Virus record (IMG/VR): IMGVR_UViG_3300028591_000115
Source of the DNA: an uncultured virus (IMG/VR IMGVR_UViG_3300028591_000115)
Taxonomy: Duplodnaviria; Heunggongvirae; Uroviricota; Caudoviricetes
Direction: 5' to 3' (one strand)
DNA length: 20,000 bases
Shown here: in pieces, positions 652-20,000 of the stretch
How the letters are laid out: each line of letters begins with the position of its first letter
Numbering within the stretch: the first letter of the stretch is position 1
The notes under the pieces: model-generated
Seen by the model: only the letters and a program-made list of their open reading frames with translations
Database searches by the model: none
What the model was told of the DNA's origin: nothing
Program-made: the position numbers and the translations under genes

Positions 652-1242
652 TTATTTCTTTACGACATTATACTTAGGAGTTGTTCTGCGGCCACTTGTT
701 TCTTTAGCAGCTGCTGGCTGCACACGACGTCCAGGAGTTTTTTCAACATTCATTCCACTCTCTGTCTGTTCTTTAGCTGCAGCTTCTTCTGCCGCAAGTT
801 CTTCTTTATGCTTGAGTGCAAGCGCTACGTCAAACCCAGTCTTTTCCTTAATAGCTTTGATCTTACGAGTATCTGTAAGCGGAAGTTCAAGTGAATATTT
901 CTGAACTAAATCAAGAACGCCAGCTGGTGCGAAATCAAGACAATCCAGTAATGCATCGACTGAACCATTCTTTAGAAGATCAATAACTCCCTTGTCATCT
1001 AAATAATATTCAGGCTCTACGTTCATTGACATCTCTTCCACCGCGGCGGGATTCTCAATATACAAGTAATTCGCAATAATTTCTGGTCCGCCTGCCTGTT
1101 GACTTAAAGCATAAATCTCTTCAAGAGGAACTTGCTTGGCTGCTCCAGGCATAAATTCACGACGAACTCTTAAATCATCTACATTATATACGACTATAGA
1201 ATTACTTCTATTGCGTACTGTAATCATAGTTTTATTATCCAT
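652..1242 (-). CDS. Hypothetical virion-module protein, 196 aa
   Basis: Intact ORF with AAGGAG RBS and TAA stop, directly downstream of the major capsid gene. No in-frame TAG. Confidence 0.8.
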   Translation of the reverse strand: MDNKTMITVRNRSNSIVVYNVDDLRVRREFMPGAAKQVPLEEIYALSQQAGGPEIIANYLYIENPAAVEEMSMNVEPEYYLDDKGVIDLLKNGSVDALLDCLDFAPAGVLDLVQKYSLELPLTDTRKIKAIKEKTGFDVALALKHKEELAAEEAAAKEQTESGMNVEKTPGRRVQPAAAKETSGRRTTPKYNVVKK

Positions 1243-4721: not shown

Positions 4722-6359
4722 TCACTCCTTTCCCGCAGCTTCACGGTTAGCTATAGTTTTATCAGATTTCTATTCATTGCTTTTTTCCGGTCTGCCCATT
4801 TTTTTATCCTCGGCCGCACCCTTAATCTAAGCCTAAGCTTTATTAGTAGCAGACTAAGCGTTTGATCCAGTCTTACCACCGAGTACATCCTCACCACGTA
4901 AAGTAGAACTCATGAGAGGCGGAATCATTAATTCTTGTAATTTCATTACATTATTCTCAAAATAAGCAGTAGCATAAATAGAACTTTGTGAATGTCCAAG
5001 AGCAATCTAAGGTAACACTTTGGAGAAACCAAGTTGTGTATGCTCTTTATATAACTTAGACAATTCTTTATAATTATTAATAGTAGTTTCAAGCATATTA
5101 AAATGCAAACACCACTTTTTATTTCCTGGGAACTTATTATTTAAGATCCTAGTAAATAACTCATCAAACTCAAAAATTAAATCTCTGATACTTGCTTCAT
5201 CAACAGCACTCGCTTTCTCAAGAGCAAGATTACTATTAGAGTTAAATAGGTTTTGAGAAACACCAGCTTCATTATAAACAGTGCGCTCAACTTTTTCAAG
5301 TTCATCTCTTGTTGCTGTAGTATTCTTATCAGCAAGATCGGCAACATCTACATCTGCAAACGTTGTCATAACATCTACGCCAATAGCACGCTTCAACATC
5401 TATACTGTATTATTATGAATATCTTTTGCTTCATCAACGTCAAATATCAAATCACCATTTTTATCTAATGGTAATTTTTGAATAATGACTTTTAATAACT
5501 TCTGCATCATCTTACGACGATCCAGATCTTGCGCTTCGTCCAAGTCCAATATCTTTGAAGTAACATTTACAAGCATTGGAACATCTTGTCCAGCAATATT
5601 AATCTTAAAAGCACAATCTGGATCTAACAACCACCATGTGCCCTCAGTATATCCATTCTTTGGATTGTTCAATTTGCCCTTCTTATAAGCAATATAAGCT
5701 TCAGAAAATTCTGAAGGATACATTTTTAAAACTCTTAAACGAGTTTCAATATCCGGAAATTGTTCATCAAAAAATCTTGGATTAAATTCTACTGCTGGTC
5801 TATTACCTACTTTGAACCGAGAGCGGCAATATGCAATTGGTAACTATTGGAATGTAAAGCCATTTGAGGTTTCTATAATATAGCCATAATAGCATCCATT
5901 AAGAATTACCTGCAATGCCACATCTTGGCACAACTTTTTCACTCCTGCATGATCAAAATAATCTAGAGCTTCAGAAAACTCCTTTAAAATTTTGTCATTC
6001 TTCTTTTCATTCTCCTCGATTACATAAGGAGTAATATACCAATCATATCTATAAAGACCGGCAAAATATTTAACCAATCTTTCATACATACCACTTACTT
6101 CAAAGAAGTAATTTGATATTTCTCTTAATAAAGGATAATCTTTTCTAGCCAATGCCGCAAGAACAGCCAATTTATTATAAGTTTTCTTGCTAGTCTTCTT
6201 AATGGCACCAAGATCTAATACAGCATCATCAAGTGTCTAGAAATAATTAACTTTTACTTTTCCATAATCTACTTGACTACCATAAATGTCATGAAGTTCT
6301 GGACGTTGGACTATTGAGAAGCCTTTGGAATGGATTAAATCCTAACGATTCTATTCCAA
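4722..6359 (-). CDS. Portal protein, 545 aa with TAG=Gln
   Basis: ORF fragments 5007..5399, 5400..5723 and 5844..6170 share one frame. In-frame TAGs lie at 4770, 4827, 4833, 4854, 5007, 5400, 5844, 6237, 6342 and 6351. TTG start 7 nt after AAGGAGG; TGA stop at 4722. Lies between terminase and protease. Confidence 0.8.
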
Positions 6360-6371
6360 GCCAATCCCTCC

Positions 6372-6737
6372 TTAATATCCAGCTTTTTCCATGATATAAT
6401 CATACGAAATTAAGTTTTCATCTGTATAAGGGATTTCGATTAGATTATATTCATTTAATGCGCAGAATCTGCGCTTATTTTTATCGTTGAACTATTGACG
6501 ATAGAAACCTTGCTTTCCACCATATTTACTGGAAGGTTCAAAATGTTGTTTTCCCTAATATTCAATTAAGAAATCCACATTACCATCATCATCAAACACG
6601 CAAAAGTCAAATCTTAATGGGCGACCATTTGGACTATTTAAACCTTCGAATGATTGCTCCATGGTGAAATTGAAGCCTGCATCGCGCAATATTTCTTCAA
6701 TCTTAATCTCTCCTCTTGAAGCTCGCAACTTTGACAC
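6372..6737 (-). CDS. PD-(D/E)xK / DUF559-Vsr-like endonuclease, about 121 aa with TAG=Gln
   Basis: Carries the motif LRFDF...LIEY*GKQH, then ND..KR.FC...LIEIPY. TAGs at 6555 and 6492; TAA stop at 6372. Confidence 0.8.
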
Positions 6738-6738
6738 C

Positions 6739-8469
6739 TCAATTCATAAATAACATATCGCTAAATCTTTTTTTATTACGTTTACGTTTTTTATCTTCTT
6801 CTAATTTTATCCAATACAGACCATATTCAAAAGCAGAAAATTTATCCTTTTTAATACCTTTATTTGCTTGCTTCAAAATGATATTAACACCTTCGTTTTC
6901 TTCACGAAGATTCATCATTTCTTCCTTTAATATGGAAGTCAAAGTAAATGGTTTAAGATATTCTGCCCGTTCTTCGGGCTTCATCTCTTGACCACGCTTG
7001 GTGGCCATTAACTTAATTTTTGCAACACGCTCATCAATTAACATCTTAACTCTGCCAGCTTGCATCATTGATTGTACATTACCATGTACTTCAGTATTAA
7101 TTGGCGCGTTAGCTTTAATTATCCATAAAGCATTTTCTTCACAAACCGCAGTTCTATATTTTTTATACTCGCCTTCTTCGTCATTATCAACACCAAAATC
7201 AGCAATAAGATCTCCAGTATCAGGATCAGTTTGACCTTTTACTAAATAATCAACTAAACCAATACCAAGACCGTTACCATCAATAACAACTTTTTTGGCT
7301 TTATATTTATAATATAATTTTTTAATACGAATACATTGTTCTTCAAAATGCATATCACTTAATGGATAGATATTGACTAAACTAATTAAAGCATTTCCCG
7401 CAGTTTGAGGATTAACCTTAAACACACAAATTACTGTATCACATCCACGTCTACCAACGTCGACAGAAAGTACATAATAAGCATTTTTTGTACTACGTCC
7501 AGAAAATTCATACTCTGGTTGCTTTAATATTCTATTATGATCAAATTGCTCTGCATTAAAGAATGCATCTTCTATTGTGCCGGACCAAACAGATTCATAT
7601 TCACGTTCAAATGAAGATTCATTAAACGTACCGTCCATTTTAAGATCTCTAATAAAGTTCTTATCGAGCAAATCCATTAAAACCGGAATTCTCCAAGTAC
7701 CACCCATGACCATCGCGCGATCAGGCTTTACAATCTCCCAACACAATAATTGAATTAATTTATCATAAGCGAATGTATTCTTCCAACCTGCTGTTGTAAC
7801 ATAAATCTATGATTTATTTAATACTTCATTATCATCTTTACCACCACACGCTGCACGTCTTGAAACGTTCATCGTAGGGATAATAACTTCATTAAGAATC
7901 GTTCCATCAATACCGACGCACTCCTCCATGAGTCCGCCATGGCGGCGTTGTCCTCTCGAAGTTTCACGAGCTGCTATATTGTCCAGCACTGACCCGTTCT
8001 TAAATATGTATCTAACATAATCTTTTCCCTCCATTGTCTTGCCGCGACGCCAATCAATCTCATCGCGCAATGGTGGGATTAAATGACATAATTCTTGCAC
8101 CTTAGCTTTAATAATACTTGATGCCTATTCCTTACCACCAGATGTAACAAATAATTTTGCTCCTGGATACAGTATACAGCGAATTATTAAAATTAATGCG
8201 GCCAAGAATGATTTTGAGTAAGCACGTGGGAATACTGCGTAAGTATATTTGTAACGCATTGCCGCACGTAAGAACACTCTCTAATAAAAGAATAAATGGA
8301 AATTTTCCGGATTATTCTTTTCAAGTAAAAAATCAACAAATAAATCTGGATACTCTCGCCAGAAAGAAACCCATTTACGAGCCACAGGTATGCAAGCCCG
8401 CACACGTTCTTCTGACAAACCAATTTTATCTACTCCAGTTTTTAAGTTGAGTAAATCCTAAAGCGCCAT
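6739..8469 (-). CDS. terL: Terminase large subunit, 576 aa with TAG=Gln
   Basis: One frame through TAGs at 7807, 8125, 8281 and 8458. Contains FY*R (adenine-binding Q motif), Walker A-like PRAYSKS, RGQRRHGGLMEE (Walker B region), VTTAG coupling motif, and RNase H-like LSVDVGR ... KDKFSA. Confidence 0.92.
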
Positions 8470-9650
8470 TATTCATCATCCTCTCCGAGGAGTTCACGAA
8501 TAGTAGCTTCATCTTCTTCTTGTTCACTTTCAACGAATTCATAATGTTTTAAGAAATCATTATCATTAAGAACTTCATCCTCAATTTCTTGTAGATCTAA
8601 ATCCTCAATCTCAGTAGTTTCAGAATCTTCTTCTTTTGCTTCTTCTCTTGCCATGGTTCTAACCGCGTTCTCAATAAGATTACCAAGATTCATTTCTTCA
8701 GTAACTAGCTTATGAGTATATCCACGAAGATCAGCAAGCGTTTCATCTACACGATCTTTTGGTTCATCTGTATAATATCTTGGAATAAAGTCTTCTCTTT
8801 CACACAACAGGATAAACTCGTCAATAGCGGAAACAAATTCTCCGCTCTCTGCTTTGTTCTGCGCAGCAGTAAATTTCGCAGACTTCATAAGCGTATCATA
8901 AACTTTAGACATTTTCTGAAATCCTTCAATGTCACCAAGATCAACTAACTAATGACACTTCAAAGAAGTCTTACAAATTAATTTTAAATAATCTTCATGA
9001 GCCGGGGTAACAATATCAAATGCCGCCATCATTTCTTGGTATAATTTCTCTAACTGAACCCACTCATATGGCCTATAAGCTTTTCCCCATTTAAGTGTAA
9101 GATACTTCTTATCTTCTTCAGTTAAATCATCATCAAAGAAATCTGGGGCATTTAAATCTATAGGAGCGGCACCTGTCTATTCGGCTTCCGCAGCTTTAAA
9201 ATCTTCCGGCTTTTCTGGCATAGTACCAGTTTGAATAGCATTTTCAATTTCTTCTCCGGTATAACCCTATCGCGCCATAACTTCAGCTTTCTTCGCATTC
9301 ATCTCTTCGCGCAATCTCTCGGTATCGGCCCAAGTATATGAACTAAATTGTTTCATACGCATCTTAGATAAATAACGACCAAGAATAGTCATACCAGTTG
9401 TCTTTCTTGGATCTTTAGCATAACGATCCAATAAAGTTGTCCATTCCTCTTCAATATAAGGAACGTCAATATCTTCCAGAATCCACAAATAAGTTTTAGG
9501 ATCCCAGTTATCTACGTGTCTAGTTAAACATTTTTTACATTCAGGTAAAAACCCATCAGGATATTTATCAGTTCTTTTTGTTTGGTAAAACTGATTTTCG
9601 TCCATTGTACGATTACACGTTTTACAATACAATGTTTTTCCATCGGCCAT
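8469..9650 (-). CDS. Zn-finger protein with acidic C-terminus (candidate terminase small subunit), 393 aa with TAG=Gln
   Basis: ORFs 9267..9650 and 8469..8912 join through TAGs at 9267, 9177 and 8949. N-terminal CKTC...CKKC. Its stop overlaps the terL start. The TerS role is inferred from position only. Confidence 0.7.
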
Positions 9651-9653
9651 TTG

Positions 9654-10724
9654 TTAGCACTCCTTTTTCTTGCTATTGCGGCACTTCTTACAAATACTAT
9701 AAAATCCATCTTTACTCGTTTTATTAATACTAAAGAATTTTGAATGAGCTAATTTAACTTCGCCACACCGGCTGCATTTCTTCCACTTACCTTTTTCTAC
9801 ATAAGTGAAATACCACATTATCCATTCGTCTTGTGCCTTTTGCGCAATTAGTTTTGGAATCTTATTCCGCCACAAACTGCTTATGTATTCTATTGAGTGC
9901 GTAAATTGGAACTCTTGTTCAAGTAATGCTTGTATTTCTACGTTCTGTAATCGTTCTTGTTTATACTGAACTATGCGTCTATACATCGGAAAATCCGCTA
10001 ATGCTCTTTCTACCAGCGGCGTAAAATCCTAAATCATATACCATGTATCGCCTTCGAAATTACCTTCAGATCGTCCTTTTAATAAGGGATACAATTGAAG
10101 AATTTCGTTTATAACTCGATAATCACAGAATGAAACACCTTCATATTTAATTACAGCATTATCATTGTCATCATATTCTATCCATTCATTCCAAGGTAAT
10201 GGTGGGAACGTTTTCATACCTCTCGATAATTTAGTGAATACAATGGGACGCTTGTAAGCATTTTTTACAACATATTGGTCTTTCCGCAATTCAATTAGCG
10301 TACTTTTTATTATATACGCCGCACGTCCGGTTGCAGTCTTTTGTAACCTTTCCCAGAATTCAATACTTTCTCTGAGACGTTTTAACTACGGTATATCTTC
10401 TATGTCTTGCTTTGTGATAGTAACTTTAGGTTGAAAAATTGTATTTTTTCCATTATCAGTAATTAAATTGTAAATTCCATCTTCACCGTTCTCTAATTGA
10501 CTGACCAGACCTTCATAAGAAATTTCTCGTTTATTAATCGTTGCTAAACGATTTTCAGTAAGAATTTTCTTCTCCTTTTTCTCTTGTTTCTCCATACAAA
10601 GAACCAAGTAATCCGCTAGAGCCTCTAGATACTACTCGCTTGGGTCGGGTACTTCTAACAAGATCTATTCTACTAGTTTGCGTCTTTCTTCTGGAGAATC
10701 AATAGTATAATCTAATTGAATTAT
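9654..10724 (-). CDS. Putative sigma-like/HTH transcription regulator with C-terminal Zn finger, about 356 aa with TAG=Gln
   Basis: Three ORF fragments join through TAGs at 10029, 10386, 10632 and 10665. Has an HTH-like segment (NVEIQALLEQEF..HSIEYISSLW) and CSRC...CKKC. Start is uncertain (ATA at 10724, 9 nt after AGGAG). Confidence 0.65.
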
Positions 10725-10772
10725 ACCAATCAACTCCTTATAATGGTCTATTTGTCCCCACTTACTACACTC

Positions 10773-10801
10773 ATTATACTAAAAAATTTTATGCAAGTCA
10801 A
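10773..10801 (-). promoter_or_regulatory. sigma-A-type promoter for the recoded head/packaging operon
   Basis: TTGACT-17 bp-TATAAT on the minus strand. Confidence 0.8.
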
Positions 10802-10820
10802 CGACGTTTTTTGCCCAAAG

Positions 10821-10849
10821 TTGAAAAATATAAAAATTTATAATATAAT
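10821..10849 (+). promoter_or_regulatory. Divergent sigma-A-type promoter
   Basis: TTGAAA-17 bp-TATAAT. Confidence 0.7.
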
Positions 10850-10878
10850 TATTATGTAAAAAAAAGAGGTGTATAAAA

Positions 10879-11412
10879 ATGAAGGTATATCTTGCAGGTC
10901 CAGTAGTTACAAATGATCCTATAGTGAAACAACAAATGGAAACTTTAGAAACAACACTTAATAATATGCGCATCTATAATAGATATTCTGATATAGAAAA
11001 AGAATATGTGGAAGTCTATCGTCCAGGTAAACATAAAGTCCCTAATGCATGGGGTATTGATATGGCAACTTGGGGTCAATGTGTATTTACAATGGATGTT
11101 ATTGCTATTGATAAATGTGAATGGATGGTGCTCGCAGATTATGGTCGACAAGCCACTGCCGGCACAAGCTGGGAAGCTGGATATGCTTTTGCAAAGGGAA
11201 TTAAAATTCTTGTCGTACAGATGCCTGGTGTAGAAGAATCTAGTCTTATGACACAAGGCTGTGCCGCAAACATTTGTAAGTACGAAGATTTTATTTCTGG
11301 CATTGATTGCGATGAACGTAATTGTGCTGTATATGATGAAATTTGGGATCATAAATATGAACACTTCTTTTTTGAGCGTGGTCGTAAACCACAAGAAAGG
11401 GTGTTAAATTAA
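10879..11412 (+). CDS. Nucleoside 2-deoxyribosyltransferase / N-glycosidase family protein
   Basis: Motifs KVYLAGP, MDVIAIDKCEWMV and GTSWEAGYAFAKG (catalytic Glu) match the NDT family. Confidence 0.85.
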   Translation: MKVYLAGPVVTNDPIVKQQMETLETTLNNMRIYNRYSDIEKEYVEVYRPGKHKVPNAWGIDMATWGQCVFTMDVIAIDKCEWMVLADYGRQATAGTSWEAGYAFAKGIKILVVQMPGVEESSLMTQGCAANICKYEDFISGIDCDERNCAVYDEIWDHKYEHFFFERGRKPQERVLN

Positions 11413-13538: not shown

Positions 13539-13638
13539 AAAAAAATTGTTACAAAAGTATTAAACATTCAAAAAAGGGGTTGTAATGCAACCCCTTTTGT
13601 GGTATACTCTTATCAGATCAAGAGAGGAGGACACCACG

Positions 13639-14040
13639 ATGACTTACTACTGGGACATGGACGGAGTGCTCGCCAACTTCCACAAGGCTTACGCTAATGA
13701 CCGGGCTATCGCCCTCAAGCGTGAAGCGATGGCGAACCTTGAGCCCTTCATGGCCAACGTGGTTACCGTCCGGAATCTGATGGCTGAAGGCCACACCTGC
13801 TACATCCTCACCAAGGCCGCCAACGCTGAAGGCGCTGAAGGCAAGGTCGAGTGGCTCGCCAAGTACATCCCCGAGATGGACGAGGCCCACACCATCATCA
13901 TCACCAAGGGCCGCAAGGTTGACAACATCCGTGAGGATGGAATCCTGGTGGATGATGATGCCGCCAACACCCGGCAGTGGGAAAAGGCCGGACACAAGGC
14001 CATCCTCCTCACCACCAAGGGCGAGGCCGTCCGGATCTGA
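13639..14040 (+). CDS. HAD-superfamily phosphatase, 5'(3')-deoxyribonucleotidase-like (paralog 1)
   Basis: Motif I WDMDGVLANF, motif II ILT, K..WL, motif IV ILVDD; GGAGG RBS. Confidence 0.85.
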   Translation: MTYYWDMDGVLANFHKAYANDRAIALKREAMANLEPFMANVVTVRNLMAEGHTCYILTKAANAEGAEGKVEWLAKYIPEMDEAHTIIITKGRKVDNIREDGILVDDDAANTRQWEKAGHKAILLTTKGEAVRI

Positions 14041-14184: not shown

Positions 14185-14309
14185 TGTTCGCGTAGTAAGT
14201 GGATCCCAACAAAAAAAGTTTGCAAAAAGTGCGCCAAAGGTGTTGACACAACCGCCCGAATGTGCTATACTAACAGTGTCAAGAGGGAGAGAGCAAGGAG
14301 GTCACCACC

Positions 14310-14618
14310 ATGATCAACATCAGGAGCATCAACAAGCTGCAGGACAACGACGGGCTGACGCTCAAGGCAGGCAAGCCTATCACCTACAAGACTGGTTGGC
14401 AGGTCGCCACAGAAGGCGTCGAGTGCAAGACGGCTCGTGAGTGCATCAAGGCTGTCAAGGCGTATGGTGGTAACTGCGGCGTGTGGTACAGCGAAGGGAT
14501 CTATTACGTGGACAAGAGCCACAGGGTAAACACGAAGCGCGAAGCCATGACCATTGGCAAGGCTTGCAATCAGATCAGCGTCCTGCGGTGGCGTGACATG
14601 GGCCTTGCCTACTGCTAA
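14310..14618 (+). CDS. Hypothetical early protein, 102 aa
   Basis: Own promoter, AAGGAGGT RBS, TAA stop. Confidence 0.85.
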   Translation: MINIRSINKLQDNDGLTLKAGKPITYKTGWQVATEGVECKTARECIKAVKAYGGNCGVWYSEGIYYVDKSHRVNTKREAMTIGKACNQISVLRWRDMGLAYC

Positions 14619-14696
14619 AAAAAGTTTGTAAAAAGTGTTGACAAACCGCATGTAATGTGCTATACTTACATCATCAAGAGAGAGGAGCGCAAGGCA

Positions 14697-14846
14697 ATGA
14701 GCAAGTGGTACACAGTCAATCATGGAGCAATCACACTGGAGCAGACCTTCAACACCTACGAGGAAGCCGAGCTGATGGCCATGGCCATGGCAGTGACTGA
14801 CCAGCACGTGTGGCATGTGGAGATGGTGATCGGTTGGGATCGGTGA
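14697..14846 (+). CDS. Hypothetical early protein, 49 aa
   Basis: Own promoter, GAGGAG RBS. Confidence 0.7.
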   Translation: MSKWYTVNHGAITLEQTFNTYEEAELMAMAMAVTDQHVWHVEMVIGWDR

Positions 14847-14865
14847 CCCCAGCCTTTTCATTTGC

Positions 14866-14892
14866 ACGCGCGCCAGCGGGCCTGGCGCGCGT
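14866..14892. repeat. GC-rich inter-cassette hairpin H3
   Basis: ACGCGCGCCAG-CGGGC-CTGGCGCGCGT. Confidence 0.85.
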
Positions 14893-14985
14893 TATTGCGC
14901 TATAGAACAGGATCCAGAAAAATTTATTTCGGGAAATGTGAAAAAAAGTGTTGACTTCTGATCCCGTTTCTGCTATACTATCATC

Positions 14986-15042
14986 AGTGAGAGAGAGTAG
15001 CAACTCTTGAAGGGCGCTCGACAGAGCCAGAGGTGGCCCACC
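14986..15042 (+). ncRNA. Small structured RNA, family copy C (short form)
   Basis: Promoter 14951-14979 has no ORF before the next promoter. Core ACTCTT..GGGC-GCTC-GACA-GAGC-N8-GCCC matches copies A and B. Confidence 0.6.
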
Positions 15043-15134
15043 AAAAAAAACTGCTACAAATTTTGAAAAAACCCTTGACAGGATCAGCAAAAGGTGCTAT
15101 ACTCTTATCAGATCAAGAGAGGAGCGGATGAACG

Positions 15135-15401
15135 ATGATGAACTACGAAGTCAAGAGCTACAGCTTCTTCCGGACGCCCAATGGTGGAGCCGATTATGTC
15201 AATGATGGAAAGCTGTTCCACCTGTCCGCTGAAATGCTGAATTGCCTGCTGAATCAGTATAAGGTCATGGGCTTCAAAGTGATCTTTGACAACGACAGCT
15301 TCGTGAGCGTTGCCAAAGTCACCAACGAAATTGAAGTGTTCAGCGCTCGCATGGATGAAATGGCGCGCAACCTGCGGGAAGCTCGCGCAGAAAATAAATA
15401 A
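15135..15401 (+). CDS. Hypothetical early protein, 88 aa
   Basis: Own promoter, GAGGAG RBS, TAA stop. Confidence 0.8.
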   Translation: MMNYEVKSYSFFRTPNGGADYVNDGKLFHLSAEMLNCLLNQYKVMGFKVIFDNDSFVSVAKVTNEIEVFSARMDEMARNLREARAENK

Positions 15402-15482
15402 AAAAAATTCAAAAAAAGGGTTGACAAAAAACCCGATCCATGTTAGAATAAATCATCGAAAGAAGCAAGGGAGGACGAAACG

Positions 15483-15710
15483 ATGATCCGTGAAAGCAAG
15501 ATGACCTTCAAGCAGGTGGGTGCCCAGTCCGTTGACATTTACTGCCAGACCCGGGATGACAATGGCCCGTGGCAGAAGCAGGGGATCATCCCGATCCGGG
15601 GCACCGTGGAAGAGGTCATGGCCCAGCAGATGGCCAATCAGGAGCGGTGGGGCTGGACTCCCTACGACATCGAGGACGGCGACACCCTCACCTTCTGGAA
15701 GGAGTTCTGA
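15483..15710 (+). CDS. Hypothetical early protein, 75 aa
   Basis: Own promoter, GGAGG RBS. Confidence 0.8.
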   Translation: MIRESKMTFKQVGAQSVDIYCQTRDDNGPWQKQGIIPIRGTVEEVMAQQMANQERWGWTPYDIEDGDTLTFWKEF

Positions 15711-15770
15711 TCGCTCCAGAAGAATAAAAAAAGTGTTGACAAACTGATTGACCTATGATACAATAACAAT

Positions 15771-15832
15771 GTCGGGAGGGGTTACTCAATCAACCCTCAG
15801 AAGTAGCCGTAAAAAGTAGGGAACCTCCCGAC
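15771..15832 (+). ncRNA. Structured 5' leader (closed stem enclosing a probable pseudoknot)
   Basis: GTCGGGAGG (15771-79) pairs with CCTCCCGAC (15824-32). Inside, GGTTACT/AGTAGCC and CCCT/AGGG cross each other. Confidence 0.55.
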
Positions 15833-15859
15833 CACTTAAAACAATAGGAGGAAACAAAA

Positions 15860-16081
15860 ATGATGACCATGACAAGACAATTCACAATCGGCGATCTAGC
15901 ACTGTTCAACCTCATGCAGGATGTGCGGAACATGGTAGATGATTTCACCGCTGATAAGTTCGGCCCAAAGGTCAAAATGACCGCTGAAGAATTCGCCGAT
16001 CTGATGGATCACATGGCGAAAAGCGCAAGGAACCTGGCCCAGGCCGAAGCCGTAAAGGCTGAACGCTCCAAGCGCACCTAA
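15860..16081 (+). CDS. Hypothetical early protein, 73 aa
   Basis: AGGAGG RBS, TAA stop, followed by a hairpin and U-tract. Confidence 0.8.
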   Translation: MMTMTRQFTIGDLALFNLMQDVRNMVDDFTADKFGPKVKMTAEEFADLMDHMAKSARNLAQAEAVKAERSKRT

Positions 16082-16136
16082 CACAGACGCAGCCCCCTCT
16101 CGCTTCTCTCCTTTCAGGCGGGAGGGTTTCTTTTTG

Positions 16137-16165
16137 GCCGACCGCGCGCGACCGGCGCGGTCGGC
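16137..16165. repeat. GC-rich inter-cassette hairpin H4 (loop inverted)
   Basis: GCCGACCGCGC-GCGACCG-GCGCGGTCGGC-ATTT; the loop reads CGGTC on the minus strand. Confidence 0.8.
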
Positions 16166-16210
16166 ATTTGAGTTGTAAAGGGGTCTCAGGGTTTGTGCTT
16201 GCGAAAGGGT

Positions 16211-16328
16211 AAAAAAAAGAGCGGGGATCGGACTCCCGCAATGCCATCGGCTTTTGTTTTGCTGGGCTCGCCCGGCTCCGTGAGGAGCGCCCTAGAGGAG
16301 TGCCGGTGGATCACTACCATCTCCCTGT
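16211..16328 (-). ncRNA. Small structured RNA, family copy A
   Basis: Minus-strand promoter at 16335-16363, no ORF, ends in a hairpin plus U-tract. Aligns end to end with 19646-19752 with compensatory changes. Confidence 0.8.
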
Positions 16329-16334
16329 GACTAT

Positions 16335-16363
16335 AAGATATCATACTTTGCTCTATTTGTCAA
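16335..16363 (-). promoter_or_regulatory. sigma-A promoter of the inverted ncRNA cassette
   Basis: TTGACA-17 bp-TATCTT with a TG extension and upstream A-tracts on the minus strand. Confidence 0.75.
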
Positions 16364-16496
16364 CTACTTTTTGCAATTTTCTTCAACTTTTTTTTGAAGA
16401 AAATAAATTGTTACAATTTTGTTAAATCTGCGAAAAAGGGGTTGTATTCTGATCCGATCTATGGTAATATAATGGTGCGAAAGGAAGGTGCTCTGA

Positions 16497-16931
16497 ATGA
16501 AGATCTGGTTCGACATGGATGGAACGATCGCCGATCTGTACGGCGTGACTGATTGGCTCCCGGCTCTGATCGCCGAAGATACCCGCCCTTACGAAGTGGC
16601 GAAGGGGATCGGCAATCTCGCTCTGATCGCTCGGCTCCTCAACAAGGTGCAGGCGAACGGTCACGAGATTGGAATCATCTCTTGGACGGCTAAAGCCGGA
16701 ACCGCCGGATACAACGCTCGGATTTACGCCGCAAAGGTTGGTTGGCTCGGCAAGCACCTTCCTTCCGTAAACTGGGACACGATCCTTGTCAAGCCCTACG
16801 GAACTGACAAGCGGGTTGCCACTGGTGGCGGGATCCTCTTCGATGATGAGGAACCGAACCGGATCGGATGGGGCGAAGGCGCCCACACTCCTGCCGAGAT
16901 CGTGGAAGTCCTCAAGGCTCTTACCAGATAA
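16497..16931 (+). CDS. HAD-superfamily phosphatase, 5'(3')-deoxyribonucleotidase-like (paralog 2)
   Basis: Motif I FDMDGTIADL, IIS, K..WL, ILFDD. Confidence 0.85.
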   Translation: MKIWFDMDGTIADLYGVTDWLPALIAEDTRPYEVAKGIGNLALIARLLNKVQANGHEIGIISWTAKAGTAGYNARIYAAKVGWLGKHLPSVNWDTILVKPYGTDKRVATGGGILFDDEEPNRIGWGEGAHTPAEIVEVLKALTR

Positions 16932-17015
16932 GACAATGTCAAATCTGGTAAACTAAAACTGACGCAGCACCCCTGACCTTCCTCCTTGGGTTGGGGGTTT
17001 TCCTTATTTTGTGGG

Positions 17016-17043
17016 CTGCGCGCCGGCGGTCGCCTGCGCGCAG
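17016..17043. repeat. GC-rich inter-cassette hairpin H5
   Basis: CTGCGCGC-CGGCGGTCGCCT-GCGCGCAG. Confidence 0.8.
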
Positions 17044-17161
17044 TATTTCGGCTAATTAGGAGGATCAGAAAAAATTTTTTTGAAAAAGTTGTGAAAAAAG
17101 GGTTGACAGATTATCCCTTATCGTGTATAATGACTACAGTAAGAAACAGGAGGTAACCACC

Positions 17162-17335
17162 ATGAAGCTGATCGCCACCGTCAACAATCTCCCCGCCAAC
17201 CTCTCCAAGTACGCTTGGATCACCGCTCGCGCTGTCGATGGCGAGCTCTGGTTCTACGGCGCTTGGTACGATGAGGATGGCGCTCGGGCTCAGGCTCGGG
17301 AGATCGACGGCATCGCCCTCAAGGTTGAGGGCTGA
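17162..17335 (+). CDS. Hypothetical early protein, 57 aa
   Basis: Own promoter, AGGAGGT RBS. Confidence 0.8.
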   Translation: MKLIATVNNLPANLSKYAWITARAVDGELWFYGAWYDEDGARAQAREIDGIALKVEG

Positions 17336-17402
17336 TGCTGAAAAAATTCAGCATCTATCCTGTTATAATAAGAGTGTAAGAAAGAGAGAGGAGTAAACGA
17401 AA

Positions 17403-17699
17403 ATGACTACCTACACCGATCTGATCCGCAAGATGGATAATCCCCGCTACGTTGGCAAGATGGACAAACCGGTCAAGCGGGTTAATAAAGTCTATGATCT
17501 GTTTATTGATGGATCTTACATCAAGACCGAATACCACAAGAACAACGATCAGCTTGCTATTGGTCGGCTGATGGATCACGCTCGATACTACATCGACAAG
17601 ATGAACCGGCTCGGCGGTGATCCCGCCGGTGAGATTGAGATCCGGATCACTGACAGGGATGGAAAAATTTCTTTCAAGAAATTTTCCAAAAACGCTTGA
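17403..17699 (+). CDS. Hypothetical early protein, 98 aa
   Basis: GAGGAG RBS; the TGA stop lies inside the TTGACA of the next promoter. Confidence 0.75.
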   Translation: MTTYTDLIRKMDNPRYVGKMDKPVKRVNKVYDLFIDGSYIKTEYHKNNDQLAIGRLMDHARYYIDKMNRLGGDPAGEIEIRITDRDGKISFKKFSKNA

Positions 17700-17754
17700 C
17701 AGGATCAAGCAAACCTGCTATAATGTAACCATCAAGAGAGAGGAGCGAAAGACA

Positions 17755-18030
17755 ATGACAAGCAAGAAATTCGCAGGACACGAAAAGGCCGCCGCTAAGA
17801 TCAACTACTACGAAGACGGCTCCATGGAACTGGTGAGCTACAAGACCGTGGTTGCCACGGTTGACCCCGAAGGTTGGGTGCACCTCAACGGCCTGTACAG
17901 CATGACCACGATCAAGCACATCGGTTGGTTCGCCCGGCTGATCGGTACGGACTACCACACGCTGAAAGGCCTCATGGTCGACCACAAGGACATGAACCTC
18001 AACACCGGCGAGGTGGTGGATTGGGAGTAA
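17755..18030 (+). CDS. Hypothetical early protein, 91 aa
   Basis: Own promoter, GAGGAG RBS, TAA stop inside the terminator loop. Confidence 0.8.
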   Translation: MTSKKFAGHEKAAAKINYYEDGSMELVSYKTVVATVDPEGWVHLNGLYSMTTIKHIGWFARLIGTDYHTLKGLMVDHKDMNLNTGEVVDWE

Positions 18031-18049
18031 TCCCAATCCTTTTTCTTTT
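18018..18049 (+). terminator. Intrinsic terminator
   Basis: GGATTGGGA-GTAA-TCCCAATCC followed by TTTTTCTTTT. Confidence 0.85.
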
Positions 18050-18051
18050 GA

Positions 18052-18080
18052 GCCGGTCGTTGCTGGGCGCGACGACCGGC
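18052..18080. repeat. GC-rich inter-cassette hairpin H6
   Basis: GCCGGTCGTTGC-TGGGC-GCGACGACCGGC-ATTT. Confidence 0.8.
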
Positions 18081-18192
18081 ATTTAGATTTTGGTAGGGTC
18101 TGCATAATTATACAATCGCATTGCATAAAAAAAGTGCTTGACAGCCGATCCTGTATCTGGTACAATAGTGGTGGAAAGGAAGGTGCTACCCC

Positions 18193-18627
18193 ATGACTGA
18201 ACTGACTGCGATCCGTGACTTCGTTGAGCTGATCACCGGCATCCGCCCTGTGATCGCACGCAAGCGTGACGATTGGTCTGTTATTTCCGAAGCCGACTCC
18301 ATGCGGATGACCGTCCCCACGGTCTACACCGGCTCCGAAACTGACAAGGCTTTCCGCAAGGACTTTGTGAGCCGTTGCCCTCTTGCCCGGGGCTTCGCTG
18401 ATGTTACCATTAGCATCCTGCACGAGATGGGGCACTTCGCCACCCGTGACAACTTCAACAGCGATGTGTACACCGCACAAGTTGAGGAAGCCGGCGCCGA
18501 CATGGAAAAATACATGGCGATCCCTTACGAGATGCTCGCCACCTGTTGGGCGATCTGTTGGCTGATGGATCCGGACAACCGGAAAGAAGCCAAAAATTTT
18601 GAGAAAAATTTCTTCGGAAGGGGTTGA
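18193..18627 (+). CDS. HExxH zinc-metallopeptidase-like early protein
   Basis: ILHEMGHF motif with a downstream Glu (PYE..A); own promoter and RBS. Confidence 0.7.
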   Translation: MTELTAIRDFVELITGIRPVIARKRDDWSVISEADSMRMTVPTVYTGSETDKAFRKDFVSRCPLARGFADVTISILHEMGHFATRDNFNSDVYTAQVEEAGADMEKYMAIPYEMLATCWAICWLMDPDNRKEAKNFEKNFFGRG

Positions 18628-18657
18628 CAAACCGCCCCGGATCTGATACAATGATCA

Positions 18658-18941
18658 TGTTGAAAGGAGATGGTTCCGATGGGGATCGAAGCCCCCGGCC
18701 CGCAGGCAGGTGCGAAGCGGGCCACATGGGCGGGAGGTAAGCACCCAGCCGGTTGAGGAGAGGGCCCCCAAGACCGGCAAGCGAACCTTGGCAAGTGAAT
18801 GGAGGATGGCCACCGCCTTAAGAAGCCCCAGGGAGGCTGAAGCCGATTGCGAGAGCGCAAGTTGCTCGTGTAAGACCTTCAAACTCGGGAAACGAGGATG
18901 CCCCGAACCCTGTTGATACAGAGCCGAACGGCTCTTTTTTT
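18658..18941 (+). ncRNA. Large structured RNA 1 (~240-nt core plus terminator)
   Basis: Lies between promoter 18624-18652 and terminator 18920-18941. 5' GGTTC..GGGG-ATC pairs with 3' GAT-G-CCCC-GAACC. Several internal stems and no convincing ORF. Confidence 0.75.
18920..18941 (+). terminator. Intrinsic terminator
   Basis: AGAGCC-GAAC-GGCTCT followed by a T run. Confidence 0.85.
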
Positions 18942-18945
18942 ATTG

Positions 18946-18974
18946 GCCGAGCGTGCGCGGGCCACACGCTCGGC
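18946..18974. repeat. GC-rich inter-cassette hairpin H7
   Basis: GCCGAGCGTG-CGCGGGCCA-CACGCTCGGC-ATTT. Confidence 0.8.
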
Positions 18975-19065
18975 ATTTGGGATCAGCTAAGGGTTCAGAA
19001 AAAAAATTTTGCAAATCGGCCAAAAAAGTGTTGACAAATGGCTCCCGTTATGGTATTCTATACTC

Positions 19066-19516
19066 ACCGGAAGGGGTTAGAGCCCGGGGCCACGGGTGCC
19101 AAAGCCGATGGAAGGAGCTACGCGCGGAGCGCCCCGCGCGCGGAAGAACCCGGGGGGTTGGAGTAGCGCACCAAGGGCCGAAGGCCAAGGCCGGATCTCC
19201 CGGGGCCGAAACTACTACGTTGAGGGTAGGCAGAGCCGGAACATCGGGTAGCCGAGCCGGTGGGGCCCATGAGAGCCTGTAAGACCTCCCCAATGAAACG
19301 ACCGCAGGCCGAAGTCCTACTCTGCGGTATACGGGGCGAGGAACCCCGGGGTCCGAAAGGGCTCAAATGTGCGGGCAACAACAGGGGAGCGTCTGGGACC
19401 CCGGGGCCAGTAGGATGGACGCAAAGGGTGGTAACCTGCCCGACGAAGAGCCGGGCTTGAGACCTCAAGTGCGAGGACGAATAGCCAACAGAGGGATCAG
19501 CTGATCCCCCTTTTTT
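19066..19516 (+). ncRNA. Large structured RNA 2 (~380-nt core plus terminator)
   Basis: Lies between promoter 19031-19059 and terminator ~19491-19516. AGCCCGG (19081-87) pairs with CCGGGCT (19451-57). Many internal helices, a GAAA tetraloop, and no RBS-led ORF. Confidence 0.75.
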
Positions 19517-19523
19517 CATTTGA

Positions 19524-19553
19524 GCTGGTCGCGGGCGGCCGCGCGCGACCAGT
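19524..19553. repeat. GC-rich inter-cassette hairpin H8
   Basis: GCTGGTCGCG-GGCGGCCGCG-CGCGACCAGT. Confidence 0.8.
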
Positions 19554-19645
19554 TTTCACGCTTCAGAGAGGATCCAGAAAAAAAGATTTGCAAAAGGCAG
19601 AAAAAAAGTGTTGACATCGGCTCCCGGATGTGGTATTATACTGTC

Positions 19646-19752
19646 AGAGGGAGAAGGCAGTGAACCGGCTGACACTCCTAAAGGGCGCCGAAAGGCAAGT
19701 GCGAGCCCCGCAAAACAAAAGTCACCGGCACGGGCGGGTCCGAACCGCCCAC
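19646..19752 (+). ncRNA. Small structured RNA, family copy B
   Basis: Promoter 19611-19639, no ORF, paralog of 16211-16328 (minus strand). Confidence 0.8.
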
Positions 19753-19818
19753 AAAAAAGTTGTTGACAGATCATAAGGTCTGTGCTATAATGAAGCCATC
19801 AAGAGAAGGGAGCTAACC

Positions 19819-20000
19819 ATGATGAATACCGAAGTTATCAAGGCAATGCAGGGCAACAAGAAGGAACATAAGGCGCGCAAGTGGTGGCACAAGAATGGTT
19901 ACAAGGTCATGCGCGTGATCCTGTTTCCGTTCTGGATCGGAAGTATCCTGATCAACAAGTGCCGGGCATGGCTCAACAATCGGCAGGAATGGAGCGAAGA
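19819..20000 (+). CDS. Hypothetical early protein (partial, basic with a hydrophobic stretch)
   Basis: Promoter 19763-19791, GGGAG RBS, MMNTEVIKAMQGNKKEHKARKWW... open to the window end. Confidence 0.7.
   Translation, partial: MMNTEVIKAMQGNKKEHKARKWWHKNGYKVMRVILFPFWIGSILINKCRAWLNNRQEWSE

Follow-up and report, generated by a model that had tools for sequence, protein, structure and literature searches.

RNA1, a unit of about 283 nt in the early region of an uncultured rumen phage, is a real, uncatalogued, and modular phage RNA gene that is conserved and folded and is unrelated to the raiA-motif RNA. The 20,000-nucleotide stretch of DNA that we analyzed (the window) belongs to a 41-kb virus record (G001) that is 23% complete. 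Sheep gut runs contain near-identical DNA, and many runs from cattle gut give partial matches. A first-pass annotation of the window had described RNA1 as an independent structured RNA of the phage early region, bounded by its own promoter and terminator, and had suggested a relationship with raiA. The independent structured RNA is supported by our analysis, and both bounding elements are present (Table 1). The relationship with raiA is excluded, as described below. RNA position n corresponds to window position 18657 + n, so that RNA position 1 is 18658.

The 403-aa late protein encoded at 1320-2531 is 50% identical to a protein of phAss-1, a phage for which the available text of PMC10607447 gives a predicted host in the Eubacteriales. 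Late genes at 4722-10973 (minus strand) are broken when read with table 11 and are 545, 576, 393, and 439 aa long when TAG is read as glutamine. Because these genes are open only with TAG as glutamine, the phage recodes TAG, like phAss-1. Two early genes (13585-14040 and 16497-16931) are 5'-3' deoxyribonucleotidase-like (NT5C). No tRNA gene was found in the window.

RNA1 is one among about a dozen promoter-led cassettes that form an early-cassette array at ~14240-20000. Between 16000 and 20000 there are 9 promoter-like sites, compared with 2.2 expected. The RNA1 promoter arrangement is repeated at six other loci (L012, L013, L017, L018, L021, and L023), and at each of these the upstream neighbor of RNA1 is the same 144-aa gene as in the window. 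This gene is absent from that position in a second virus record that carries RNA1 (G002), and it matched no family in searches of PHROG and Pfam. Relatives of the 144-aa gene at L002 and L003 are without RNA1. Most terminators are followed by a G+C-rich palindromic hairpin (18052-18080, 18946-18974, 19525-19552, and others), and then come an A-tract and the next promoter; these palindromes may be recombination or protein-binding sites.

Expression of RNA1 is plausible. The transcript evidence comes from four runs and consists of contigs throughout. In cattle RNA run X23, a variant contig of 166 nt lies within RNA1; a contig cannot show ends, strand, or level. RNA run X3 contains the phage itself, with contigs that span the RNA1 promoter and terminator and leave the middle of RNA1 uncovered. 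Uncovered stretches in runs X3 and X22 (in X22, RNA1) were not counted as evidence.

Table 1. Features of RNA1 and its surroundings in window coordinates (RNA numbering in parentheses)
Feature	Position	Strand	Remarks
144-aa gene, HExxH-like motif	18193..18627	+	directly upstream of RNA1
Sigma-70-type promoter, TTGACA-17-TACAAT with TG extension	18624..18652	+	near-consensus; overlaps stop codon of 144-aa gene
RNA1 transcript, ~283 nt	18659..18941	+	start inferred from -10 spacing
P1, probable end pairing	18659..18917 (18659-67/18909-17)	+	overlaps Shine-Dalgarno site
Extended Shine-Dalgarno site	18662..18674	+	GGAG core 18666-69 invariant
AUG and 25-codon ORF	18679..18756	+	AUG invariant in 6/6; peptide not conserved
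Module A, 5' domain (RNA 34-121)	18691..18779	+	P2, P3, candidate pseudoknot, P5
P2	18691-94/18728-31	+	module A
P3 hairpin	18697-723 (RNA 40-66)	+	module A
Candidate pseudoknot GGUGC/GCACC	18709-13/18741-45 (RNA 52-56/84-88)	+	module A
P5 with inner stem 18757-68	18748-78 (RNA 91-121)	+	module A
Module C, 3' domain (RNA 122-262)	18780..18917	+	P6, P7, inner stems, P8, second candidate pseudoknot
Second candidate pseudoknot	18786-90/18893-97	+	P8 loop with RNA 129-133; invariant
P6 with palindromic GGCC loop	18801-17	+	module C
P7	18832-36/18876-80 (RNA 175-179/219-223)	+	module C; inner stems 18847-73
Motif GGC(A/U)..AGC ... GUAAG(A/C)CC	18835..18877	+	common to RNA1 3' half and RNA2 core D
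P8	18885-89/18902-06 (RNA 228-232/245-249)	+	module C
Intrinsic terminator of RNA1	18920..18941	+	
RNA2, downstream neighbor	19066..19515	+	module B 19123-211; core D (base presumably K-turn-like) from ~19219; 3' part

A pattern scan of metagenomes gave 13 loci, 7 of which are real and 6 of which are chance matches. Among the seven real loci, L022 is identical to the window, L021 and L023 carry the same RNA, and L012 is a chimera. A scan with the neighboring RNA (RNA2) yielded G002, in which locus L024 has an RNA1 copy that is 90% identical and lies among otherwise unrelated cassettes; pieces of the RNA core are the sole other DNA that this locus has in common with window positions 16000-20000. 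In G002 (L024/L031), a 19-bp palindrome lies to either side of the RNA1 cassette, and TTGCGC or TTGCTT stands as the -35 element. RNA1 thus has five other distinct copies, which are 88 to 92% identical. The alignment used below has six rows, one for each distinct full-length copy, and excludes L022, L021, and the chimera L012.

Of the six virus records searched, all of them incomplete, two (G001 and G002) have RNA1, and no copy was found in G003 to G006. Scans of a viral collection gave no copy beyond that in G002 (0 matches, 0/5 real, 1/12 real, and 1/10 real). At the sensitivity used, no copy was detected in bacterial genomes (0 matches and, in a second scan, 0/7 real) or in GenBank phages and plasmids.

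Variation among the copies is concentrated in the leader, where 18/32 positions are variable, compared with 15/88 in module A (p 5e-5) and 35/141 in module C (p 0.001). The divergence of the RNA1 core is 1 to 9%, compared with 4 to 42% at four-fold sites of the neighboring gene, which is an imperfect clock because the cassettes recombine. Variable positions make up 15/94 of the paired and 35/135 of the unpaired positions, which is not a significant difference (p 0.08).

The fold that we propose for RNA1 (Table 1) has moderate support, which comes from sequence comparison: across six close copies, three base pairs have changed by compensatory substitution and two have lost both partners. The substitutions are GC to CG at 18760:18765 (inner stem of P5), AU to UA at 18854:18866 (inner stem of module C), and CG to UA at 18885:18906 (P8). 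The paired deletions, at 18834:18878 (P7) and 18889:18902 (P8), occur in L017 and L023 and depend on gaps that were placed by hand. Both P8 changes are present on a single contig of run X4. The covariation score of the unedited alignment was reached by 15/500 shuffles, in an alignment of closely related copies in which most helices never vary and from which the structure itself was picked. There are 52 five-bp helices that fit all six copies, and 5 of these have a two-sided change; 3 are helices of our model, and the remaining two involve the terminator U run. The comparative model lies 15 to 24 kcal/mol above the minimum free energy (MFE) structure, pseudoknot energy excluded. P7 has a probability of 0 in the computed ensemble, and the broken pairs are 102:109, 146:158, 190:216, and 191:215 (RNA numbering). 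The folding energy of the window copy (z of -1.65; 16/200 shuffles) is unremarkable for its composition, and z is between -0.45 and -1.9 when the terminator is omitted.

Several helices had already been named in the first-pass annotation. Hairpin P3 is invariant in 6/6 copies with a pair probability of 0.86 to 1.00, and the stem GCCGGUU/GACCGGC (P5) has a probability of 0.81 to 0.99 and two wobble-preserving changes, so both are retained. The pseudoknot proposed for the P3 loop is kept as a candidate. Its GGUGC/GCACC pairing is invariant in 6/6 copies and for this reason is without covariation, a 5-bp match of this type occurs in ~5% of shuffles, and its 3-bp GCC extension conflicts with the better supported stem at 18748-78. 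Two other proposals fail. The end pairing 18672-87/18897-909 is in the window MFE structure, but it has 18/72 cells unpaired and a probability of ~0 in 5/6 copies. The hairpin CUCG-GGAAA-CGAG is also in the window MFE structure, but it has 8/24 cells unpaired and is broken in 4/6 copies. P8 excludes both and replaces them. P1, the end pairing of our model, has 1/42 cells unpaired and three one-sided changes; its probability is 0.49 to 0.84 in the five homologs, and the window copy has 0.07. In 6/6 copies the loop of P6 is complementary to itself, and a single such loop is a weak sign of a kissing-loop oligomer.

We set aside helices 76-81/218-223, 129-133/172-176, 168-170/178-180, 178-180/185-187, and 77-81/128-132 (RNA numbering). 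The variants do not support a K-turn in P5 or a bulged-G loop in P7, and Rfam gave no support for a likeness to twister, HDV-like, hammerhead, or SRP Alu RNAs. A search of the window against Rfam 15 gave 0 matches to any family, including ROOL and GOLLD, at the gathering threshold, and a relaxed search gave chance matches alone (E of 0.39 to 1). Rfam searches of three related early regions also gave 0 matches.

The suggested relationship with raiA was examined by means of the Rfam raiA model (RF03072), for which the membership cut-off is 101.3 bits and the minimal form scored 57. Neither this model nor a search with all of Rfam gave a raiA match at the gathering score or at E<=10, and no raiA RNA was found in record G001. 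In the control search with the Rfam model, 12/141 bacterial genomes were above the cut-off, with scores of 136 to 199 bits; an earlier control sample had given 0/101 genomes. L070 and L071 are 113-nt raiA-like RNAs that score 57 and 52 bits, which is under the Rfam cut-off, and the accessible part of PMC12968392 describes a minimal raiA subtype of the same length, 113 nt. We also built our own covariance model from nine raiA RNAs, with filters off and three RNAs held out. This model gave the held-out raiA RNAs 182 to 197 bits and a minimal raiA RNA 56 bits. RNA1, in contrast, scored 0.6 bits and its homologs <=5.6 bits, which is below local hairpin noise. The order of short raiA motifs on which the suggestion had been based was compared with 12 raiA RNAs; z was 0.9 to 2.3 in the window copy, and the five homologs gave -1.6 to +0.5. 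The likeness is peculiar to the window copy and leans on U70, A102, and G134, which are missing in most homologs.

In the available portions of PMC12968392 and PMC10861870, the features that define raiA are P1, P4, P6, and PK1; the membership criteria also include a triangular-core tertiary fold and KhpA/KhpB binding. The RNA1 alignment lacks the P1 closing stem with its conserved GU and GGU bulges (consensus UGUGGUUG ... ACCAGGUCA), the P4 strand GUGUGGGG, and the P6 CCUG/CAGG pair. PK1, in which the P3b loop pairs with the P5-P6 linker, has no counterpart, and the CCCGC of RNA1 sits in a 7-bp local hairpin. The Rfam result, the score of 0.6 bits, the loss of likeness in the homologs, and the missing P1, P4, P6, and PK1 together exclude raiA-motif identity. 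It could be argued that RNA1 is a highly diverged raiA-motif RNA that mimics the host RNA. The motif order of the window copy, with z up to 2.3, points in this direction, as does GUAAGACC, a short word that the published raiA alignment contains 256 times and that is kept in both RNA1 and RNA2. However, real raiA RNAs score 56 to 197 bits, the homologs lose the likeness, the invariant letters of P1, P4, and P6 are missing, and the letters preceding GUAAG in RNA1 differ from the UUAG of raiA. Family membership is refuted, and we consider the diverged form extremely improbable. RNA1 and raiA are alike in size, in a multi-stem fold with two candidate pseudoknots, in a probable clostridial host, and in the word GUAAG-N-CC, whereas RNA1 differs in model score, in topology, in being phage-borne, and in lacking the invariant P1, P4, and P6 sequences. 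A link with raiA, now ruled out, would have opened a route to raiA function.

The modules of RNA1 are exchanged with those of its neighbor. In the chimera at L012 (2252-2600, minus strand), module A is fused to D-E, and RNA1 positions 1 to 123 run straight into the RNA2 core, with RNA2 as the donor of the 3' part. The chimera keeps module A whole, and the leader and domain A move as one block. At 955-1043 (minus strand) of the same locus, module B is found alone with its own promoter. Both L012 junctions have matching loose ends in cattle RNA run X23; past one junction, the letters diverge. RNA2 variant contigs in this run have a depth of 41 to 58. The arrangements in related phages are A-C, A-D-E, B-D-E, B alone, and D alone, and in other records A-C occurs alongside a lone D, or D carries different tails. 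The covariation score of RNA2 core D was reached by 0/500 shuffles, and we take the base of this core to be K-turn-like. The motif that RNA1 shares with core D (GGC..AGC followed by GUAAGACC) is present in 6/6 RNA1 copies and 8/8 core copies, and its GG and CC are pairable in both. It was found in 2/20000 shuffles, with a pattern that was written after the data had been seen. A search with the RNA2 core profile did not detect RNA1, and we therefore give common descent and a binding motif held in common equal likelihood. The window also has paralogs of a third small RNA family, at 19645-19760 (+), 16251-16329 (-), and ~15003-15050 (+), and G004 has a 98% copy.

The leader of RNA1 carries an extended Shine-Dalgarno site and an AUG. 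With a 16S tail motif, the predicted duplex is -14.6 to -20.3 kcal/mol in 6/6 copies. Among 80 cassette genes (some of which are duplicates across phages), the median duplex is -12.95, and from 0 to 14 of them have a site as strong as that of RNA1. Sites are weaker (-8.3 to -11.5) in the other non-coding units that we examined. Both the GGAG core and the AUG are invariant amid a leader in which more than half of the positions vary, and the GGAG core is computed to be unpaired with a probability of 0.19 to 0.39. The first-pass annotation had pointed to the 25-aa ORF as a possible argument against a noncoding RNA. What is conserved is the ribosome-binding site and the AUG, and not the peptide. 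Purifying selection on the peptide was not seen in the six copies. In the five in-frame copies, 8/14 variable sites are at codon positions 1 and 2, which is close to neutral. In L024, a frameshift past codon 6 gives an ORF of 20 aa and leaves the folded core intact. The peptide has no match in Pfam. Since the peptide is not conserved, the ORF does not refute the RNA call, and the pattern of variation suggests that initiation, rather than the peptide, is the conserved feature of the leader. The same 16 leader letters stand ahead of a protein gene in L003. The leader could be baggage, because it is also found in protein cassettes and may be covered by P1.

The reading that we favor, with a probability of roughly 0.5, is that RNA1 is an early transcript of the host polymerase that functions as a folded RNA made of two exchangeable domains, that its 5' end is shielded by a ribosome, and that the domains, once folded, act in trans by binding a host factor. 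Host RNA polymerase would begin at the RNA1 promoter right after infection and end at the terminator. A host ribosome would load on the Shine-Dalgarno site and AUG near the 5' end, and this initiating ribosome would most likely protect the 5' end against 5'-3' decay and so let RNA1 accumulate. STAB-SD-type 5' protection is a comparable system. According to the available text of PMC5737220, initiating ribosomes shield the Bacillus subtilis hbs mRNA. Domains A and C, whose folding is supported in part by the substitutions described above, would then work in trans, either as a decoy or as a scaffold, on a defense component or RNA-binding factor of the host. The motif common to RNA1 and the RNA2 family would be the likeliest recognition site.

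One alternative is that the Shine-Dalgarno site and AUG are vestiges of a protein cassette, and that RNA1 is a structured RNA whose 5' end is closed by P1, with no role for the ribosome. This would fit the leader shared with protein cassettes, the P1 probabilities of the five homologs, in which P1 covers the site, and the low unpaired probability of the GGAG core. It does not readily explain why GGAG and AUG are invariant in so variable a leader, why six variants retain an above-median 16S duplex with differing letters, or why the other non-coding units have weaker sites, and we consider it a serious possibility that is nonetheless rather unlikely. Another is that host ribosomes are recruited and then held or slowed by the pseudoknotted domain A, which would divert translation or tether the 3' domain. 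The mRNA entry to an initiating ribosome lies about AUG+12, and P2 starts at AUG+12 in all copies; the leader and domain A form one block in the chimera, and both reading frames end within domain A. However, 7-bp hairpins are usually unwound by elongating ribosomes, and the AUG+12 spacing is possibly chance, and a trap of this kind seems doubtful to us. We would put at a similarly low level the proposal that these RNAs are a mix-and-match phage family in which a 5' docking domain, made of the strong Shine-Dalgarno site, the AUG, and the pseudoknotted block where the mRNA enters, would capture ribosomes of the host and bear 3' effector domains that can be exchanged. If true, it would be an RNA-only, domain-shuffled system of host takeover or counter-defense.

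It is very unlikely that RNA1 is a small-peptide mRNA or a dual-function RNA in which the 25-aa product matters. The strong site, the invariant AUG, and the same 25-codon frame in 5/6 copies and in the chimera are what such an mRNA would have, but they must be set against the L024 frameshift with its intact folded core, the substitutions at codon positions 1 and 2, the negative Pfam result, and ~165 nt of conserved structure downstream of the stop. We find it just as hard to regard RNA1 as a non-functional passenger cassette that was acquired by recent recombination and whose structure reflects high G+C. The weak folding z-scores are in keeping with a passenger, as are the occurrence in just two of the six incomplete virus records and a high identity that could mean recent transfer. 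Three compensatory substitutions, two paired deletions, and a leader that varies far more than the core are not.

If the ribosome loading that our favored reading invokes is functional, phages would be using initiation on a throw-away ORF to stabilize a structured RNA or direct it to a target. The domain swaps that occur naturally (A-C, A-D-E, B-D-E, B, and D), the shared motif, and the conserved start are ready tests of what the parts do. We found no description of RNA1 in the titles and abstract openings of the papers that our literature searches listed. Six short RNA1 words were unmatched in the searchable part of the supplements of PMC10690425, a catalogue whose remainder could hold RNA1. 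ROOL and GOLLD have solved folds and no known function, and RNA1 is small enough to make and probe.

The RNA1 array can be compared with the promoter-early stem-loop (PeSL) cassettes of T4-type phages. Like these, it is made of small promoter-gene-terminator units that recombine; unlike these, some of its units are RNA genes, and domains are swapped inside the RNAs too. RNA1 also resembles the hbs mRNA of PMC5737220 and STAB-SD-type 5' protection in having a strong Shine-Dalgarno site near the 5' end together with long-range 5'/3' pairing, and by analogy initiation rather than a product could set the stability of RNA1. However, hbs encodes an essential protein, whereas the RNA1 ORF is not conserved and the body of RNA1 is a conserved fold. 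The accessible part of PMC12286853 describes ROOL and GOLLD as phage-encoded, independently folded noncoding RNAs with pseudoknots and of unknown function, reports for OLE or GOLLD a palindromic GGCC loop that makes an intermolecular kissing contact, and notes that many GOLLD RNAs are >800 nt. RNA1 belongs to neither family. It is like them in being a phage-encoded, folded noncoding RNA with pseudoknots (candidates in RNA1) and a palindromic GGCC loop (P6). It is unlike them in having no Rfam score, in its length of 283 nt, in its place in an early-cassette array within a window that has no tRNA gene, and in its Shine-Dalgarno site and AUG.
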